Shown: positions 48,557 to 53,513, counted from the stretch's first letter. The stretch is DNA of 64,000 nt from Promethearchaeota archaeon (GCA_048940925.1 JBHLOC010000012.1:38316-102315), one strand, 5' to 3'. Notes: generated from the sequence alone by a model not told the origin. Made by a program: numbers and translations.

Positions 48557-50332
48557 TCACTCATTTAAAAACCTACTATATTTTCGAATAACTTTTTCTT
48601 TGTGGGTTGGTTGCCCTTCAAAAAACTTATCGTTTTGTACGATTTCTCTCAATTTAGATTTGGTATACAAATCTTCAGCATAAGTCTCTTCTATTTTGGA
48701 AATCACTTGAGTCTCAACAGTAGTATCAATACATTCATAGGAAAACTGAGCCATCAGTTCAGCAGAAAGCTGTTCATTAATTAGAATAAGGACTGAATCA
48801 TCTAGAATTTGGCGATAATACGGTAATGATGTCTTATCGAATATCATAGATTTATTTTGTAGATATCTAATATAAATAAAGGTTACTACACCTAAATATA
48901 TCCCAATTAAGCAGTATCCGAATATCGTTATGAAATTTAATAGAAAAAATGTTTGGAAAAGTATGAGAAGGAGAGCCACAAACCCAAAGCTTAGGATTGG
49001 TATAGAAGAATAGCGTATTTTCTCAATAAAATTATCTCGAATCTCATCATATTCAGCTGCTAGATCCTCACTTTCAGAAAACTCTTCTATAAGAGAATAT
49101 TTGCGTTCTAGAAAATCAAGAATTTCAGGGAGTTGAGCTAGTTCGATAACATGAATGTTTGTAGATTTATGATAGGCAAAAGGAATAACTTTATCTAAGA
49201 ACCCAACAGAACCAAGACACACAAGTAAAGGTTCAAGCAGTATTTTATATTGTAAGGGTCCATTTCGATATAATACCTTTTTAAAAAGAATTGATTTCTC
49301 CACCGATATCTCAAGTTTAAGAAAGTTAGTGAGCATCTGAGAGAATTGTCCTGAATTCATCAAATCATTTAGCATAACTTGGCATACTTTAGATAATTTG
49401 GTAAGGTAGGTGGTACAAACTTTCTTTATTGAAGGTTCCTCTTTCTTTACCTCACCCTCATAATCAATATGCGCCTGGGATATTTTTATTTTTCCTGTGA
49501 ATGAACTAAACTTAATAGGAAGTATAAGTAATAATTCCAGCATTTCATTTAATCTGAGCTGCTTTACCGCAATTGCATCAACAGTTGTAAATAGAGTTCC
49601 AGATTTAGGAAGAATATGATAATCTAAGGATTTTAATTCTGAATTTAATCGCGTAAGGAATTCTTGTCTTTCAATTTTTTCTGGGTGAATTACTACTGGT
49701 TTTTTTATTACTTCTTGGATTTTGGGAATGCTTTCTTCTTTAGGAATTTCATAAGTAATAGACTCTTCTTGAACAGGAGGAGTCATCACAGCTTTTATAG
49801 TGGAATTTACTCTATTGGGATGAGGATAGCTTTTTCCTAACTGTGAGATCTTAAATTTCTCTTCAAACCACGGTTTAAGTTCTTTTATATCCTCTACAGG
49901 TTCAACTTCATATTCTCTACCCTCCTTCTCAACAGTATCATAATAATATTCGGGTTCCTCATATTCAATCAAATCCTTTTCATCATGAGCTAGTTCAGAA
50001 TGCTCGGAGGCAGAATACTCATTTAAAGTTTTAAGACTACTAAACGACTTTGCAGCTCCAATAATTTTTTGAGCTGATTTCTCTCCAATCCCCTCAACTT
50101 CAGCTACTTGAGCTATGGTACTATTAGCTATCTTCTCAATCGAATCAAACCCATAGCGAAGAAGTCGCTCAGCAGTAGTTGACCCTACATATTTTAACTT
50201 AGTAATATCATTTTTTGCGGTAGCGCTTGCAATGAAAGCATTATCAATGGGTCTAGTCTCTTTATCCTCTTTTTCGGTTTCACCGTCAGTTAAATCTAAC
50301 GCATTATCAATTATTTTATCATGTTCTGTCAT
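48557..50332 (-). CDS. Membrane-anchored helix-hairpin-helix DNA-binding protein
   Basis: LKYVGSTTAERL and VEGIGEKSAQKI double HhH (RadA-N-like), acidic linker, central alpha/beta domain, two TM helices. Confidence 0.78.
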   Translation of the reverse strand: MTEHDKIIDNALDLTDGETEKEDKETRPIDNAFIASATAKNDITKLKYVGSTTAERLLRYGFDSIEKIANSTIAQVAEVEGIGEKSAQKIIGAAKSFSSLKTLNEYSASEHSELAHDEKDLIEYEEPEYYYDTVEKEGREYEVEPVEDIKELKPWFEEKFKISQLGKSYPHPNRVNSTIKAVMTPPVQEESITYEIPKEESIPKIQEVIKKPVVIHPEKIERQEFLTRLNSELKSLDYHILPKSGTLFTTVDAIAVKQLRLNEMLELLLILPIKFSSFTGKIKISQAHIDYEGEVKKEEPSIKKVCTTYLTKLSKVCQVMLNDLMNSGQFSQMLTNFLKLEISVEKSILFKKVLYRNGPLQYKILLEPLLVCLGSVGFLDKVIPFAYHKSTNIHVIELAQLPEILDFLERKYSLIEEFSESEDLAAEYDEIRDNFIEKIRYSSIPILSFGFVALLLILFQTFFLLNFITIFGYCLIGIYLGVVTFIYIRYLQNKSMIFDKTSLPYYRQILDDSVLILINEQLSAELMAQFSYECIDTTVETQVISKIEETYAEDLYTKSKLREIVQNDKFFEGQPTHKEKVIRKYSRFLNE

Positions 50333-50357
50333 AGGTCTAGTATCATTATAGCCAGAC

Positions 50358-50374
50358 TTTATAAAGGAAAAAAA
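50358..50374 (-). promoter_or_regulatory. Promoter of the membrane operon (TTTTTTTCCTTTATAAA), leaderless spacing
   Basis: TATA box ends 25 nt upstream of ATG 50332. Confidence 0.55.
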
Positions 50375-50455
50375 GGTAAACCGAAAATTTTTATTTATAA
50401 ATATCCACTACTATCATGAAATAGGACGGAAATATTAGTATTTCAAATAAGATAA

Positions 50456-50574
50456 GTTTCCTGCTAGCACCCTGGATTTTTGTCTTTTAGTAGTGTAAAT
50501 TTTTACACTCTGATTTCGCCCTCCTCCCCCTTGAACGTTTAATGGAGCGGTATTGCTCCGAGCTAGCAGGAAAC
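50456..50574. ncRNA. Candidate structured RNA or cruciform element (119 nt)
   Basis: Perfect 13-bp terminal inverted repeat GTTTCCTGCTAGC/GCTAGCAGGAAAC with internal hairpins at 50492-50509 and 50544-50559; GC-richer than its flanks. Confidence 0.5.
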
Positions 50575-50592
50575 GCCTTTTAACCAAGAAAT

Positions 50593-50970
50593 ATGATTTT
50601 TTTTCTTTATATTCGATTATTTTATCAACTATTAGACTATTCATATAAGAGAGGAAATATCATTATTGTCTCTGGAAAGATAAAGAATAAAGCTGAAGTA
50701 AAACGAAAGGCAAAAAAGCCTATATTATGTCCCTTATGCCAAGAGAAAATTGAAATTGGAGTAGAAAATTCTGTTGTTAAGGATATTTCTTTGTCAAATT
50801 TAGTCTATTTTCCTCACATTCATATACATGGTAATCCTCTTCATGCTTTAATCTGCTATCTTAACTCAAAATTAGAGACAAGAAATATTGGAATCATTAA
50901 AAGTATTGAAATTTCACGGGATTCGGATACTCTTAAACAAGTTATGAATAAATGGACAAATCCTTATTAG
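50593..50970 (+). CDS. Small Zn-binding protein (CPxC...HxHxHGxPxH), start uncertain
   Basis: CPLC and FPHIHIHGNPLHALICY; overlaps the helicase start. Confidence 0.7.
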   Translation: MIFFLYIRLFYQLLDYSYKRGNIIIVSGKIKNKAEVKRKAKKPILCPLCQEKIEIGVENSVVKDISLSNLVYFPHIHIHGNPLHALICYLNSKLETRNIGIIKSIEISRDSDTLKQVMNKWTNPY

Positions 50971-53513
50971 CAGAGGGATTACAGATTAGTCTTACAGATT
51001 TCACGAGTAAAATTGAAGAAAAAGAAATTGAATCTCAAAAAAATAAAGAGATTTTCAAATATATTCCTGAAGAAAAAATACTCAGAGTATTATTCGAAAA
51101 TCGTATTTTTGAATTACGGGATATTCAAAAAGAGGCCATCAAAAAAGGTCTATTCTTCAGAAAATCATTTTTAGTTTGTGCTCCTTCTGGAAGTGGTAAG
51201 ACATTAATAGGAGAGATCTGTGCTGCGAATAATGTATTTCAGAAGTTTGGGAAATCAGTCTATTTGGTTCCTTATAAAGCTTTGGCGACAGAAAAATATT
51301 ATCATTTTAAAAAAGGATATAAAAGGTTTGGAATCAAAGTAAAATTGTCCATTGGAGATTATGATGTGGATGATTCTAAGTTATCAAAAGCAGATATTAT
51401 AGTTACTACCTATGAAAAATGCGATTCACTATTGCGAAATTTTTATGATAAAGACTGGATTTATGACATTTCAACGATTATTATTGATGAAATTCATATA
51501 ATTGGAGAATCAGATCGAGGTCCTAGGTTAGAATCATTGATCGTACGACTAAATGAATTTCTACACAACCCTCAAATTATCGGATTAAGTGCCACAATCG
51601 CAAATCCTGAGTTTTTTAACACGTGGCTCTCTTCATTAGGTAATAGAACTACGCTTATAAAATCCGATTCACGTCCTGTACCCTTGCATTATAAAATCGA
51701 AATAACCCAGAATAAAGATTCTACCATAAAACATACCGTAAAATCTATTTTAGGAAAAAATGGTCAATTGCTCATCTTTGTAAATAAACGAAGAAGTGCT
51801 CAGCAAACTGCAGAATCGCTACAAATCTTAGTAAAAAAATATCTTGAAGATGCAGAATTAACCATATGTAAAGCATTAGAAAAGCGTCTTGATTCTATTA
51901 AAGGTGGGCATCAAGATTTAAAGAAGGTAATTAAATCTGGAATCGCATTTCATCATGCAGGACTCCTTCCTCGTGAACGAAGACTTATTGAAGATAATTT
52001 TCGAAAACGAATCATAAAGGTTGTATGCTGTACAACTACTTTATCAGCAGGAATAAATACTCCCGCACGAGCGGTTATCCTTAAGGATTTTAAAAAATAT
52101 GTGAGATCGGGGCATAATATTACAAATTATTCTGGTTATTTTGAAAATGGAGATGGGTTTAGCTATTTTAGACCTTTTTCAGCAAATGAAGTATTTCAGA
52201 TATTAGGAAGAGCTGGACGACCTGGATTGGATTCTGTAGGGTATGGTATTATCCTTGTAAAGAATATAGATGAGAAATTATGGGTTGAAGATCATTTTTT
52301 TAATGTCCAGCTGCCTTCTCATGAACTAATTCCTCGATATAATAATTTAGACTCAGGATTGAATAAAATAAATACATTGCAAGAACAGGTATTATTACGT
52401 GTATTTGAAGAAAAGCATATTACTACTGAAAAGCTAAAGGAATTTTTTGAAAAGACCTATTTTTGGTTTGGAATTAAAGATAAAATGAGACAACAAAAAA
52501 TTCCTATCGAACAATTATTAATGATAAGAGAGATAACTCCTCAGAATATTCTCAAGCTTCATTCTGATCCTCAGAGAGTAGAACAATTAAGAAAATCTCA
52601 TTATCAGATTAAATTATCACATTTTAATGACTCTACCCTCGGGGGACATGTGAAAACCGATTATGGAGTTTATTTCTGCCAATTCACGATCGAGACTGGT
52701 ATCCAATGTTCATGCGGATTCCAAAACGGCATGTCTGATAATTTTGCAAATGACGAGTTTTCATTTCACTTTTGTGATCACATTACTTTATTTCTTCAAT
52801 ATTTAATTGAATTACCTGATCAGTCCTTACAGAAATATACTAATTCTATCATCCCTAAAAGTATCAAAAATCAATATATTCTCTCTTATTTGTTTGAGAA
52901 AGGGCTTATTATGAGAGATAAAAAAGGGTTTCTCACCTGCTCTCAGTTTGGAAGTCTAATTATCAAATTATATTTATATCCTGTATCGGGAGTAATGATC
53001 AGATATAAACTTGAGAACAATGAAATTAATACCTTTCAGCAACTTATCAAGGAAGCCTATGATGTGCTTAAAGCAGAATATCGGGTAAAAGACTTTCATA
53101 TGCTTCAACCGCTTTTAGAATGGGCTGACGAAGAACCTATAGAAGAAATTTTAGAGCGGTACAACATTATGGCAGGAGATTTACATTCGGTGAGAGATAA
53201 TTTGGAGCGTATTGTCTCATTTATAGGCCATATTGCTAGTGATCTGAGTACAAATGGGTATGATCTTAGAACCAAGTTATCAAGAGTATCAGAAATGGCA
53301 GAGACTCTAAGAATCCGTGTTAAATACGGAATCCGAGAAGAATTATTTGATCTGGTGTTGAGATTACATGATGTTGCAAGGGTTCGAGCGCGAATTCTCT
53401 TTAATGCGGGATATCATACCGCTACTAAAGTAAAACAAGAAAATCCCTATATACTATATCAAAAAACAGGATTAGGAATTAATTTATGCAAAAAAATTAT
53501 TGGTGAAAAATAA
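50952..53513 (+). CDS. hel308: Ski2-like SF2 helicase, Hel308/Hjm paralog with inserted SWIM zinc finger
   Basis: APSGSGKT, PYKALA, DEIH, SAT, HHAGL, GINTPA, QILGRAGRPG, CSC-x19-CDH, C-terminal VARVRARILFNAG. Confidence 0.88.
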   Translation: MDKSLLAEGLQISLTDFTSKIEEKEIESQKNKEIFKYIPEEKILRVLFENRIFELRDIQKEAIKKGLFFRKSFLVCAPSGSGKTLIGEICAANNVFQKFGKSVYLVPYKALATEKYYHFKKGYKRFGIKVKLSIGDYDVDDSKLSKADIIVTTYEKCDSLLRNFYDKDWIYDISTIIIDEIHIIGESDRGPRLESLIVRLNEFLHNPQIIGLSATIANPEFFNTWLSSLGNRTTLIKSDSRPVPLHYKIEITQNKDSTIKHTVKSILGKNGQLLIFVNKRRSAQQTAESLQILVKKYLEDAELTICKALEKRLDSIKGGHQDLKKVIKSGIAFHHAGLLPRERRLIEDNFRKRIIKVVCCTTTLSAGINTPARAVILKDFKKYVRSGHNITNYSGYFENGDGFSYFRPFSANEVFQILGRAGRPGLDSVGYGIILVKNIDEKLWVEDHFFNVQLPSHELIPRYNNLDSGLNKINTLQEQVLLRVFEEKHITTEKLKEFFEKTYFWFGIKDKMRQQKIPIEQLLMIREITPQNILKLHSDPQRVEQLRKSHYQIKLSHFNDSTLGGHVKTDYGVYFCQFTIETGIQCSCGFQNGMSDNFANDEFSFHFCDHITLFLQYLIELPDQSLQKYTNSIIPKSIKNQYILSYLFEKGLIMRDKKGFLTCSQFGSLIIKLYLYPVSGVMIRYKLENNEINTFQQLIKEAYDVLKAEYRVKDFHMLQPLLEWADEEPIEEILERYNIMAGDLHSVRDNLERIVSFIGHIASDLSTNGYDLRTKLSRVSEMAETLRIRVKYGIREELFDLVLRLHDVARVRARILFNAGYHTATKVKQENPYILYQKTGLGINLCKKIIGEK

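Follow-up and report, generated by a model that had tools for sequence, protein, structure and literature searches.

In a 64,000-nt stretch of DNA from a Promethearchaeota archaeon (GCA_048940925.1 JBHLOC010000012.1:38316-102315; hereafter, the window), two divergent operons are separated by a 119-nt sequence, 50456-50574, that can form several stems. The locus raises the question of whether this sequence acts as RNA or as DNA and, if it is an RNA, which strand is read and what the product does. An earlier note, made from the sequence alone, offered an independent non-coding RNA, a protein-loading DNA site such as an oriT-like hairpin, and a MITE, and named an Rfam scan, a count of copies in the genome, and a covariation analysis at syntenic loci as checks. 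The analysis presented here leaves little doubt that 50456-50574 is a structured RNA gene, one copy of an uncatalogued small non-coding RNA family that we call U-box RNA.

The element folds into a three-way junction

When the window sequence was re-read, the earlier sequence reading of 50456-50574 proved correct. The two ends, GTTTCCTGCTAGC and GCTAGCAGGAAAC, neither of which occurs elsewhere in the window, form a perfect 13-bp closing stem (P1) that encloses the GGAGC/GCTCC hairpin (P3) and the C-rich tract CGCCCTCCTCCCCC. The hairpin made of AGTGTAAA and TTTACACT (P2) also exists, but not with the 8 bp first ascribed to it, which would leave an impossible 2-nt loop; it consists of 7 bp and a 4-nt loop. 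The features of the locus are collected in Table 1.

The plus strand folds with a predicted free energy of −42.6 kcal/mol, compared to −25.6 ± 3.1 for shuffled sequences (n = 200; z = −5.45), and none of the shuffles was as good. The fold is a three-way junction of P1, P2, and P3. Two long strands are left unpaired in the minimum free energy (MFE) fold: a uridine-rich box (the U-box), which is the most conserved feature of the element and was overlooked in the earlier note, and a pyrimidine-rich linker. A 69-aa minus-strand open reading frame (ORF) that crosses the element is spurious and is accounted for by the RNA.

Table 1. Features of the U-box RNA locus, numbered from the first nucleotide of the window.
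Feature	Position	Strand	Basis or comment
TATA-like box of the divergent 591-aa HhH-domain gene (start 50332)	50357-50367	−	predicted from sequence
BRE/TATA-like promoter proposed for the RNA, CCGAAAA + TTTATTTATAAATA (TATA box 50390-50403)	50381-50403	+	predicted from sequence
A-rich zone with probable start site and 25-35-nt leader	50404-50455	+	start placed from TATA position only
P1 5′ strand, closing stem	50456-50468	+	perfect 13 bp with 50562-50574; covariation
U-box CTGGATTTTTGTCTTTTAGT (family consensus ...TTGGT)	50472-50491	+	near-invariance; candidate protein-docking site
P2 hairpin, 7 bp, 4-nt loop (50492-50498 with 50503-50509)	50492-50509	+	fold; compensated sequence change in other genera
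Pyrimidine-rich linker with anti-Shine-Dalgarno-like C-tract CGCCCTCCTCCCCC (50517-50530)	50510-50543	+	unpaired in MFE and consensus folds
P3 hairpin GGAGC-GGTATT-GCTCC (50544-50548 with 50555-50559)	50544-50559	+	covaries between copies; missing in some genera
P1 3′ strand, closing stem	50562-50574	+	as for 50456-50468
3′ tail GCCTTTT (family N-C-C-Y-U-U-U)	50575-50581	+	probable 3′ end or short U-tract
Zinc-ribbon gene and 853-aa DEAD/Hel308-type helicase gene, downstream and co-oriented	50593-53513	+	ORF and domain search
T8 run (50597-50604) and TATA box CTTTATATT (50605-50613) of the zinc-ribbon/helicase operon	50597-50613	+	conserved at orthologous loci

The element belongs to an RNA family of one archaeal family

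BLAST of the element against its own genome (4.8 Mb in 90 contigs, ~31% GC, rated 100% complete) recovered four more copies that have a core of 64 to 85 nt in common at 77 to 91% identity; over the core, the window copy is 91 to 95% identical to other copies. A covariance model (R1) built from 47 copies of the genus finds six copies in this genome. With R1, which had the window copy among its training rows, window positions 50452-50583 score 129.8 bits (E = 5e-31); with a second model (R2), built from 65 diverse copies of 12 genera, the window copy scores 116.7 bits. The match to the family model is full-length: P1, U-box, P2, pyrimidine linker, P3, and a CCYUUU tail are all present. At one contig end (C7:160302-160424, locus L082), there may be a seventh copy in degenerate form (18.6 bits, E = 0.54, three mismatches in the U-box).

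R1 found matches in 98 of the 101 genomes of the host's taxonomic family, covering all 12 genera, with 1 to 12 copies per genome. In the sister family, 1 of 14 genomes had a match, located on a 1.8-kb contig of a fragmented metagenome-assembled genome (MAG), and there was none in the five genomes of two further families of the same order. When 150 genomes of the phylum were searched with R2, all 25 genomes of the host family matched, while 26 other families were without a match except two marginal ones (E of ~1e-4 to 1e-3). A search of named genome records with the 20-nt U-box returned MAGs labeled Promethearchaeota or Promethearchaeia, as NCBI now calls Loki-type Asgard archaea, and a few records with other Asgard or bacterial labels, which we take as submitter labels or mis-binned contigs. 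Outside one family of Loki-type Asgard archaea, U-box RNA is thus essentially absent from the phylum.

Many copies of relatives lie within ~150 nt of a contig end (e.g., G012:C80:1-123, G012:C65:5-136, G027:C140:4-132, and G014:C146:1-60). The repeated core probably breaks short-read assemblies, and copy numbers in MAGs are therefore likely underestimates. Model-confirmed copies were also present on three predicted viral contigs of IMG/VR (UViG_3300042287_000909, UViG_3300029288_000001, and UViG_3300042154_003276; loci L221, L222, and L223), with scores of 49.5, 29.4, and 29.4 bits; one of the contigs is 224,826 bp long, and they may be host fragments. One copy (L047:1494-1652; G002 C12:78088-) has the 30-nt sequence AAGGTGATGGCACTCCCATGCCTGGGGAAT inserted halfway along its C-tract, and in copies L141, L145, and L150 of another genus, a further hairpin separates P2 from the linker; inserted modules are thus tolerated in the junction strands.

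No catalogued RNA accounts for the element. A cmscan of 49800-51200 against Rfam 15 at E ≤ 10 returned nothing overlapping 50456-50574; families whose covariance models had no match on the element include tRNA, 5S, SRP, RNase P, C/D, H/ACA, riboswitches, and Y RNA. ARAGORN predicted no tRNA in the window, and the earlier statement that the element does not fit tRNA or 5S rRNA stands. We found no paper on this RNA, or on the U-box sequence as an archaeal RNA, in the literature on Asgard non-coding RNAs and Sm sites.

Compensatory changes maintain the stems, and the U-box is nearly invariant

In an alignment of 65 diverse copies from 12 genera, 91.8% of cells at modeled pairs were paired, compared to 62.6% with shuffled partners and 34 to 46% when the partners were slid by one to three columns. 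Double compensatory changes were found in all 25 modeled pairs, including all 13 of P1. This alignment was fitted to the model, which somewhat favors the structure; an unfitted MAFFT alignment gives the same pattern. Among 10 positional orthologues of the window copy, the structure was likewise supported: 94.8% of cells were paired (77.7% shuffled, 33 to 50% slid), with double compensatory changes in 12 of the 13 P1 pairs and in 16 of the 25 pairs overall. The variants of P3 stay complementary (GGAGC/GCTCC in the window, GACGC/GCGTC and GACCT/AGGTC in other copies), and among the copies of the host genome, the core is kept while the closing stem and P3 vary on both sides in a compensated fashion. 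Judged by these substitution patterns, the structure of U-box RNA is under selection.

The unpaired strands are conserved in a different manner. The core of the 20-nt U-box consensus, CUGGAUUUUUGUCUUUUGGU, is identical in more than 100 of 126 distinct copies from the 12 genera; the window copy differs from the consensus by one G>A change, and in the host genome the sequence is present only inside family copies. In the alignment fold, four invariant columns within GGAUUUUUGUC are weakly paired, and their invariance leaves no covariation there. The linker that follows P2 varies by subtype, with CCU in 98% and CCUCC in 60% of the 126 copies; the window copy has its commonest form, CGCCCUCCUCCCCC. 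A rearranged fold in which the linker would pair with the P1 3′ strand was considered and set aside; in the commonest subtype the linker resembles that strand, and, by eye, it stays unchanged where P1 changes, as in the window copy. The tail that follows P1 has C at two fixed positions (87 and 75% of the 126 copies) and then U (74 to 79%). Strong covariation combined with 20 nt of invariant, uridine-rich sequence is a pattern that implies a conserved partner macromolecule.

The U-box and the C-rich tract as candidate interaction sites

The reading that we favor, at slightly less than even confidence, is that U-box RNA is a free-standing small RNA, read on the plus strand, that would act in trans as a small ribonucleoprotein (RNP), with the U-box docking a protein and the C-tract pairing with mRNAs. 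The best candidate for the docked protein would be one of the three to four LSm/Sm-like proteins of the genome, where searches gave three clear LSm genes (C40:48209-48403, C85:26597-26812, and C18:46847-47032) and a weak one, and the docking site would be formed by AUUUUUG and UCUUUUG of the U-box. An Sm-type site is a single-stranded RAU(4-6)GR tract between helices, and GGAUUUUUGUC at 50474-50484, between P1 and P2, has this form. Docking of an LSm protein on the U-box is nevertheless a tentative assignment, by analogy: the invariant box of 20 nt is longer than an Sm/LSm ring needs, and LSm gene counts barely differ between genomes of the host family, which have the RNA (three to four matches), and those of the sister family (three matches), the extra match being a weak one.

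The closest comparison for U-box RNA is with Sm-class small nuclear RNAs (snRNAs; U1, U2, U4, U5, and U7, whose site is AAUUUGUCUAG) and with archaeal SmAP/LSm-bound RNAs. They have in common a single-stranded RAU(4-6)G-type tract (GGAUUUUUGUC, then UCUUUUGG) between two helices with a hairpin directly after it, a length of ~120 nt, several gene copies with their own promoters, and a host that encodes LSm proteins. In contrast to the Sm class, U-box RNA has an invariant box longer than an Sm site and a long stem joining its 5′ and 3′ ends, is limited to one Lokiarchaeia family, and has no splicing machinery to serve. Since it is present in that family only and not in the other Asgard archaea searched, it is not an ancestor of the snRNAs.

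The second part of the proposal is that the exposed C-rich tract would mimic the anti-Shine-Dalgarno end of 16S ribosomal RNA (rRNA) and pair with purine-rich ribosome-binding sites of mRNAs, as bacterial small RNAs with C-rich seeds do with or without Hfq. The motif CCCUCCUCCCCC is unpaired in both the MFE and consensus folds and is complementary to the Shine-Dalgarno sequence of the organism. In a genome of the genus, the 3′ end of 16S rRNA reads GAUCACCUCC, with the core GAUCACCUCCA (longer read, GGAUCACCUCCA), and in the host genome the words GGAGG, GAGGT, AGGTG, GGTGA, and GTGAT are 10- to 20-fold enriched at positions −15 to −6 of ATG starts. Such pairing is possible, though we consider it somewhat less probable than LSm docking: no specific mRNA target was found, and the linker varies by subtype, some forms being without CCUCC. 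A genome scan for long complements of the C-tract returned only the antisense of the family's own genes and one polyglycine coding run. The latter, a 14-nt perfect complement at C11:31617-31631 (L020:1501-1515, minus strand), was rejected as a target; it lies at the 3′ end of a 416-aa ORF in low-complexity coding sequence (PPGGGGGGP).

Multicopy sibling small RNAs with C-rich anti-Shine-Dalgarno seeds offer a comparison system for this part: RsaE/RoxS and other Rsa RNAs of Firmicutes, the CcsR “cuckoo” RNAs of alpha-proteobacteria, and sRNA41 of Methanosarcina. Like U-box RNA, they have several paralogous genes, unpaired CCUCC/UCCC motifs, and a stem that leads into a 3′ U-tract. U-box RNA differs in having no sequence or structural homology to them (Rfam scan), in placing its C-tract in a strand of a three-way junction rather than in hairpin loops, and in the additional invariant U-box. 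An anti-Shine-Dalgarno-like tract joined to a candidate docking site makes a trans-acting RNP on ribosome-binding sites the most economical mechanism; we regard the combination of LSm docking and anti-Shine-Dalgarno pairing as a reasoned proposal with roughly one chance in three. The wider version, in which U-box RNA would be the RNA subunit of a lineage-specific Asgard Sm/LSm-type RNP, a counterpart in prokaryotes of the Sm-class snRNPs, with the ring on the internal AUUUUUG between helices and the anti-Shine-Dalgarno mimic controlling translation initiation or ribosome availability genome-wide, is a good deal less probable.

Searches for rRNA itself gave no 16S match in the host genome, and the Rfam small-subunit model found a 3′ fragment only, or nothing, in two single-contig genomes of the genus; rRNA genes may be unassembled or interrupted. 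A role as an rRNA guide (snoRNA- or U3-like) was considered and rejected: the U-box and three linker types paired with 23S rRNA of the family and with partial 16S rRNA of the genus no better than shuffled sequences did. The best duplex, of linker B with 23S rRNA, reached −25.1 compared to −19.4 ± 2.6 for shuffles, the best of which reached −29.3.

The main rival to a trans-acting, base-pairing RNP dispenses with pairing targets. In it, the RNA would be a sponge or scaffold comparable to CsrB, 6S, or Y RNA, whose U-box binds one factor and whose pyrimidine tract binds a KH/PCBP- or S1-like factor or the ribosome. Invariance at every position of the 20-nt box suits a sequence-specific contact with a protein or the ribosome better than a degenerate U-tract would, the linker keeps its composition (CCU in nearly all copies) more than its exact sequence, and searches of the genome and of rRNA gave no conserved target complementary to the RNA. 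We consider this reading unlikely all the same: there is no co-occurring candidate partner protein, and the ribbon-helix-helix (RHH) protein described below looks like a DNA binder. Y RNA and YrlA, in particular, are of similar length (~100 to 120 nt), and they too join their 5′ and 3′ ends in a long bulged stem, have a large internal region rich in pyrimidines, and end U-rich at the 3′ side. U-box RNA differs from them in being without a tRNA-like module, and its genome is without a Ro60/TROVE gene (PF05731, no hits with controls positive); membership in the Y RNA family was rejected on this result and on the lack of an Rfam Y_RNA match.

A separate promoter lies between the RNA and the downstream operon

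In at least 10 genomes of the genus, U-box RNA is located directly upstream of the zinc-ribbon/helicase operon on the same strand, at a distance of 10 to 670 nt. The same order of RNA and gene in relatives shows the window copy to be a positional orthologue and not a recent insertion. Zinc-ribbon homologues are present in 29 of the 40 other genomes of the genus. All nine orthologous loci examined have, between the RNA and the zinc-ribbon gene, a T-run with TTTAAAT or TTTATAT after it, at a variable distance from the RNA; by this conservation, the T-run and TATA box are the operon's own promoter. The T8 run may also terminate U-box RNA.

The zinc-ribbon gene itself (50593-50970) has a conserved N terminus without a canonical start codon. 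Relatives can be aligned no further back than about residue 22 of the window ORF and have stop codons ahead of it, and the conserved coding start is close to ATC, ATT, or ATA codons (~50653-50661), 5 nt after GAGAGG. Translation may begin at a non-AUG codon; if it does not, the ATG at 50593 serves as start in this genome alone.

Other copies of U-box RNA lie upstream of a radical-SAM gene and upstream of genes for a 347-aa RHH protein (p347). The host genome has two p347 genes (L002:90-1133, C46:7022-8062; and L051:6445-7488, C51:24456-25487), and the protein is encoded in 62 of the 101 genomes of the family, often by tandem pairs. U-box RNA is found within 1.5 kb of p347 at both loci of the host genome and at 9 of 30 loci of relatives, mostly ~300 nt upstream on the same strand (chance expectation, <1%). 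No sequence match to p347 was found in Pfam, NCBIfam, or the PDB, and Foldseek gave none below E = 1e-3. In an AlphaFold model (pLDDT 82.7), an N-terminal ribbon-helix-helix (VIA-align Z of 5 to 5.6 to NikR, TraM, and CopA) is followed by unrecognized domains, and no RNA-binding or nuclease fold was recognized. On this model, p347 looks like a DNA binder, which may regulate the RNA or be regulated by it.

These neighborhoods bear on the next rival, in which the element would be a cis-acting 5′ leader, attenuator- or riboswitch-like, of the co-oriented gene downstream, here the zinc-ribbon/helicase operon. A three-way junction with conserved junction strands does resemble an aptamer. By crude ORF calls, and over copies that are not independent, the nearest downstream ORF was co-oriented with 66 and convergent with 23 of the 89 scorable copies (74% co-oriented; 117 copies in all), and besides the recurrent order of RNA and zinc-ribbon/helicase operon, ~30% of the p347 genes have a copy ~300 nt upstream on the same strand. 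Against a leader stand the conserved promoter between the RNA and the zinc-ribbon gene at all orthologous loci, the 23 convergent neighbors, the median distance of 353 nt to a co-oriented ORF (from the same ORF calls and copies), the conserved CCYUUU tail after the stem, and the functionally unrelated genes found downstream (radical-SAM, helicase operon, and RHH protein). The unrelated genes, the intervening promoter, and the convergent neighbors speak against assignment to riboswitches or other cis leaders, and a leader function is improbable, less likely than a scaffold. The neighborhoods fit a free-standing gene in promoter-bearing intergenic regions better than a 5′ leader, and U-box RNA is probably an independent transcription unit, as far as promoter motifs and gene order can tell.

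U-box RNA is probably read from the plus strand

Two lines of evidence point to the plus strand. First, in the unfitted alignment, P1 and P2 contain 47 G-U and 8 A-C combinations, numbers that are swapped on the opposite strand; fitting the alignment to the model gives 102 and 37. Second, TATA-like words are enriched 40 to 70 nt upstream of the model start in 110 copies (33, 25, and 19 per 10-nt bin compared to ~5 to 12), while no peak was observed at any distance on the opposite strand. The CCGAAAA-TTTATTTATAAATA box of the window copy is found at the same distance in its closest orthologue (L200) and in a paralogue (L002). From these patterns, it is very likely that the RNA is read on the plus strand of the window. 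With a conserved covarying family, an upstream TATA-like box, and a separate promoter for the downstream operon, the independent non-coding RNA of the earlier note is borne out.

A TATA box fixed at −26 relative to the start of P1 gave no positional signal, and for this reason the primary transcript is likely to have an A-rich leader of 25 to 35 nt and variable length. The 60 nt upstream of the copies are 51% A. Masking of the U-box by this leader was considered and set aside as weak: the leader/U-box duplex of the window copy has −11.0 kcal/mol (z = −2.1), while the mean over 120 copies is z = −0.6. At the other end, the RNA probably stops either within the CCUUUU tail or ~20 nt further on, at the T8 run. 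With ends predicted in this way, U-box RNA would be ~120 to 160 nt long. A search of sequencing runs located the locus in 17 DNA runs, from sediment and mangrove metagenomes, and in no RNA run.

Transcription from the minus strand would yield a purine- and A-rich RNA carrying GGGGGAGGAGGG and ending in a U-run encoded by the A-rich stretch to the left of the stem. The minus strand also folds well (z = −4.61 in the shuffle test), and in 42 of 110 copies, a run of at least five T begins no more than 10 nt past the stem on that strand, which would suit a terminator. Such an RNA would, however, turn the U-G pairs into C-A mismatches and have no TATA-like enrichment upstream, and in the window its upstream region is taken up by the promoter of the operon, directed oppositely. 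This reading ranks after the cis leader and is quite improbable. The minus-strand features stressed in the earlier note are hence on the wrong strand. Among them, the T-loop-like GTTCAAG is restricted to this copy, no relative keeps it, and the paralogues have CUAUUUUG in its place; it carries no weight.

The remaining rival, a DNA-level element, either a mobile repeat that encodes no protein, such as a MITE, or a hairpin for protein loading (oriT or nick site, origin box), is hardly credible despite its 13-bp terminal inverted repeats, several copies per genome, frequent contig-end positions in relatives, and the three IMG/VR contigs: the terminal repeats differ yet stay complementary, whereas transposase-bound ends would keep their sequence; G-T “pairs” are common; genomes have no more than the 1 to 12 copies given above, and this one has six; there is no target-site duplication at 50449-50455/50575-50581; the position next to the same genes is kept across the genus; and no transposase, relaxase, or Orc1 gene is adjacent. 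Archaeal MITEs such as the Sulfolobus SM elements are also short, non-coding, and present in more than one copy with terminal inverted repeats; U-box RNA differs from them in its covarying ends, few copies, lack of target duplication, and orthologous positions. Both DNA readings of the earlier note, the MITE and the oriT-like site, are thereby contradicted.

Discussion

Among known prokaryotes, Asgard archaea are the nearest relatives of eukaryotes, and to our knowledge, almost nothing is known about their non-coding RNAs. Essentially all genomes of a large Loki family, as yet uncultured, carry U-box RNA. The helicase-linked copy of the window brings together positional orthology with a covariation test of its own and a separate downstream promoter; the family as a whole is associated with an RHH protein. 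Current annotation leaves the copies blank or splits them into short reading frames that are spurious, among them the 69-aa frame at 50435-50644. The family merits an Rfam entry even if its partner is not an LSm protein, and such an entry would improve the annotation of hundreds of MAGs. If the partner of the U-box is an LSm ring, U-box RNA would provide a well-defined and testable archaeal Sm-site RNP.
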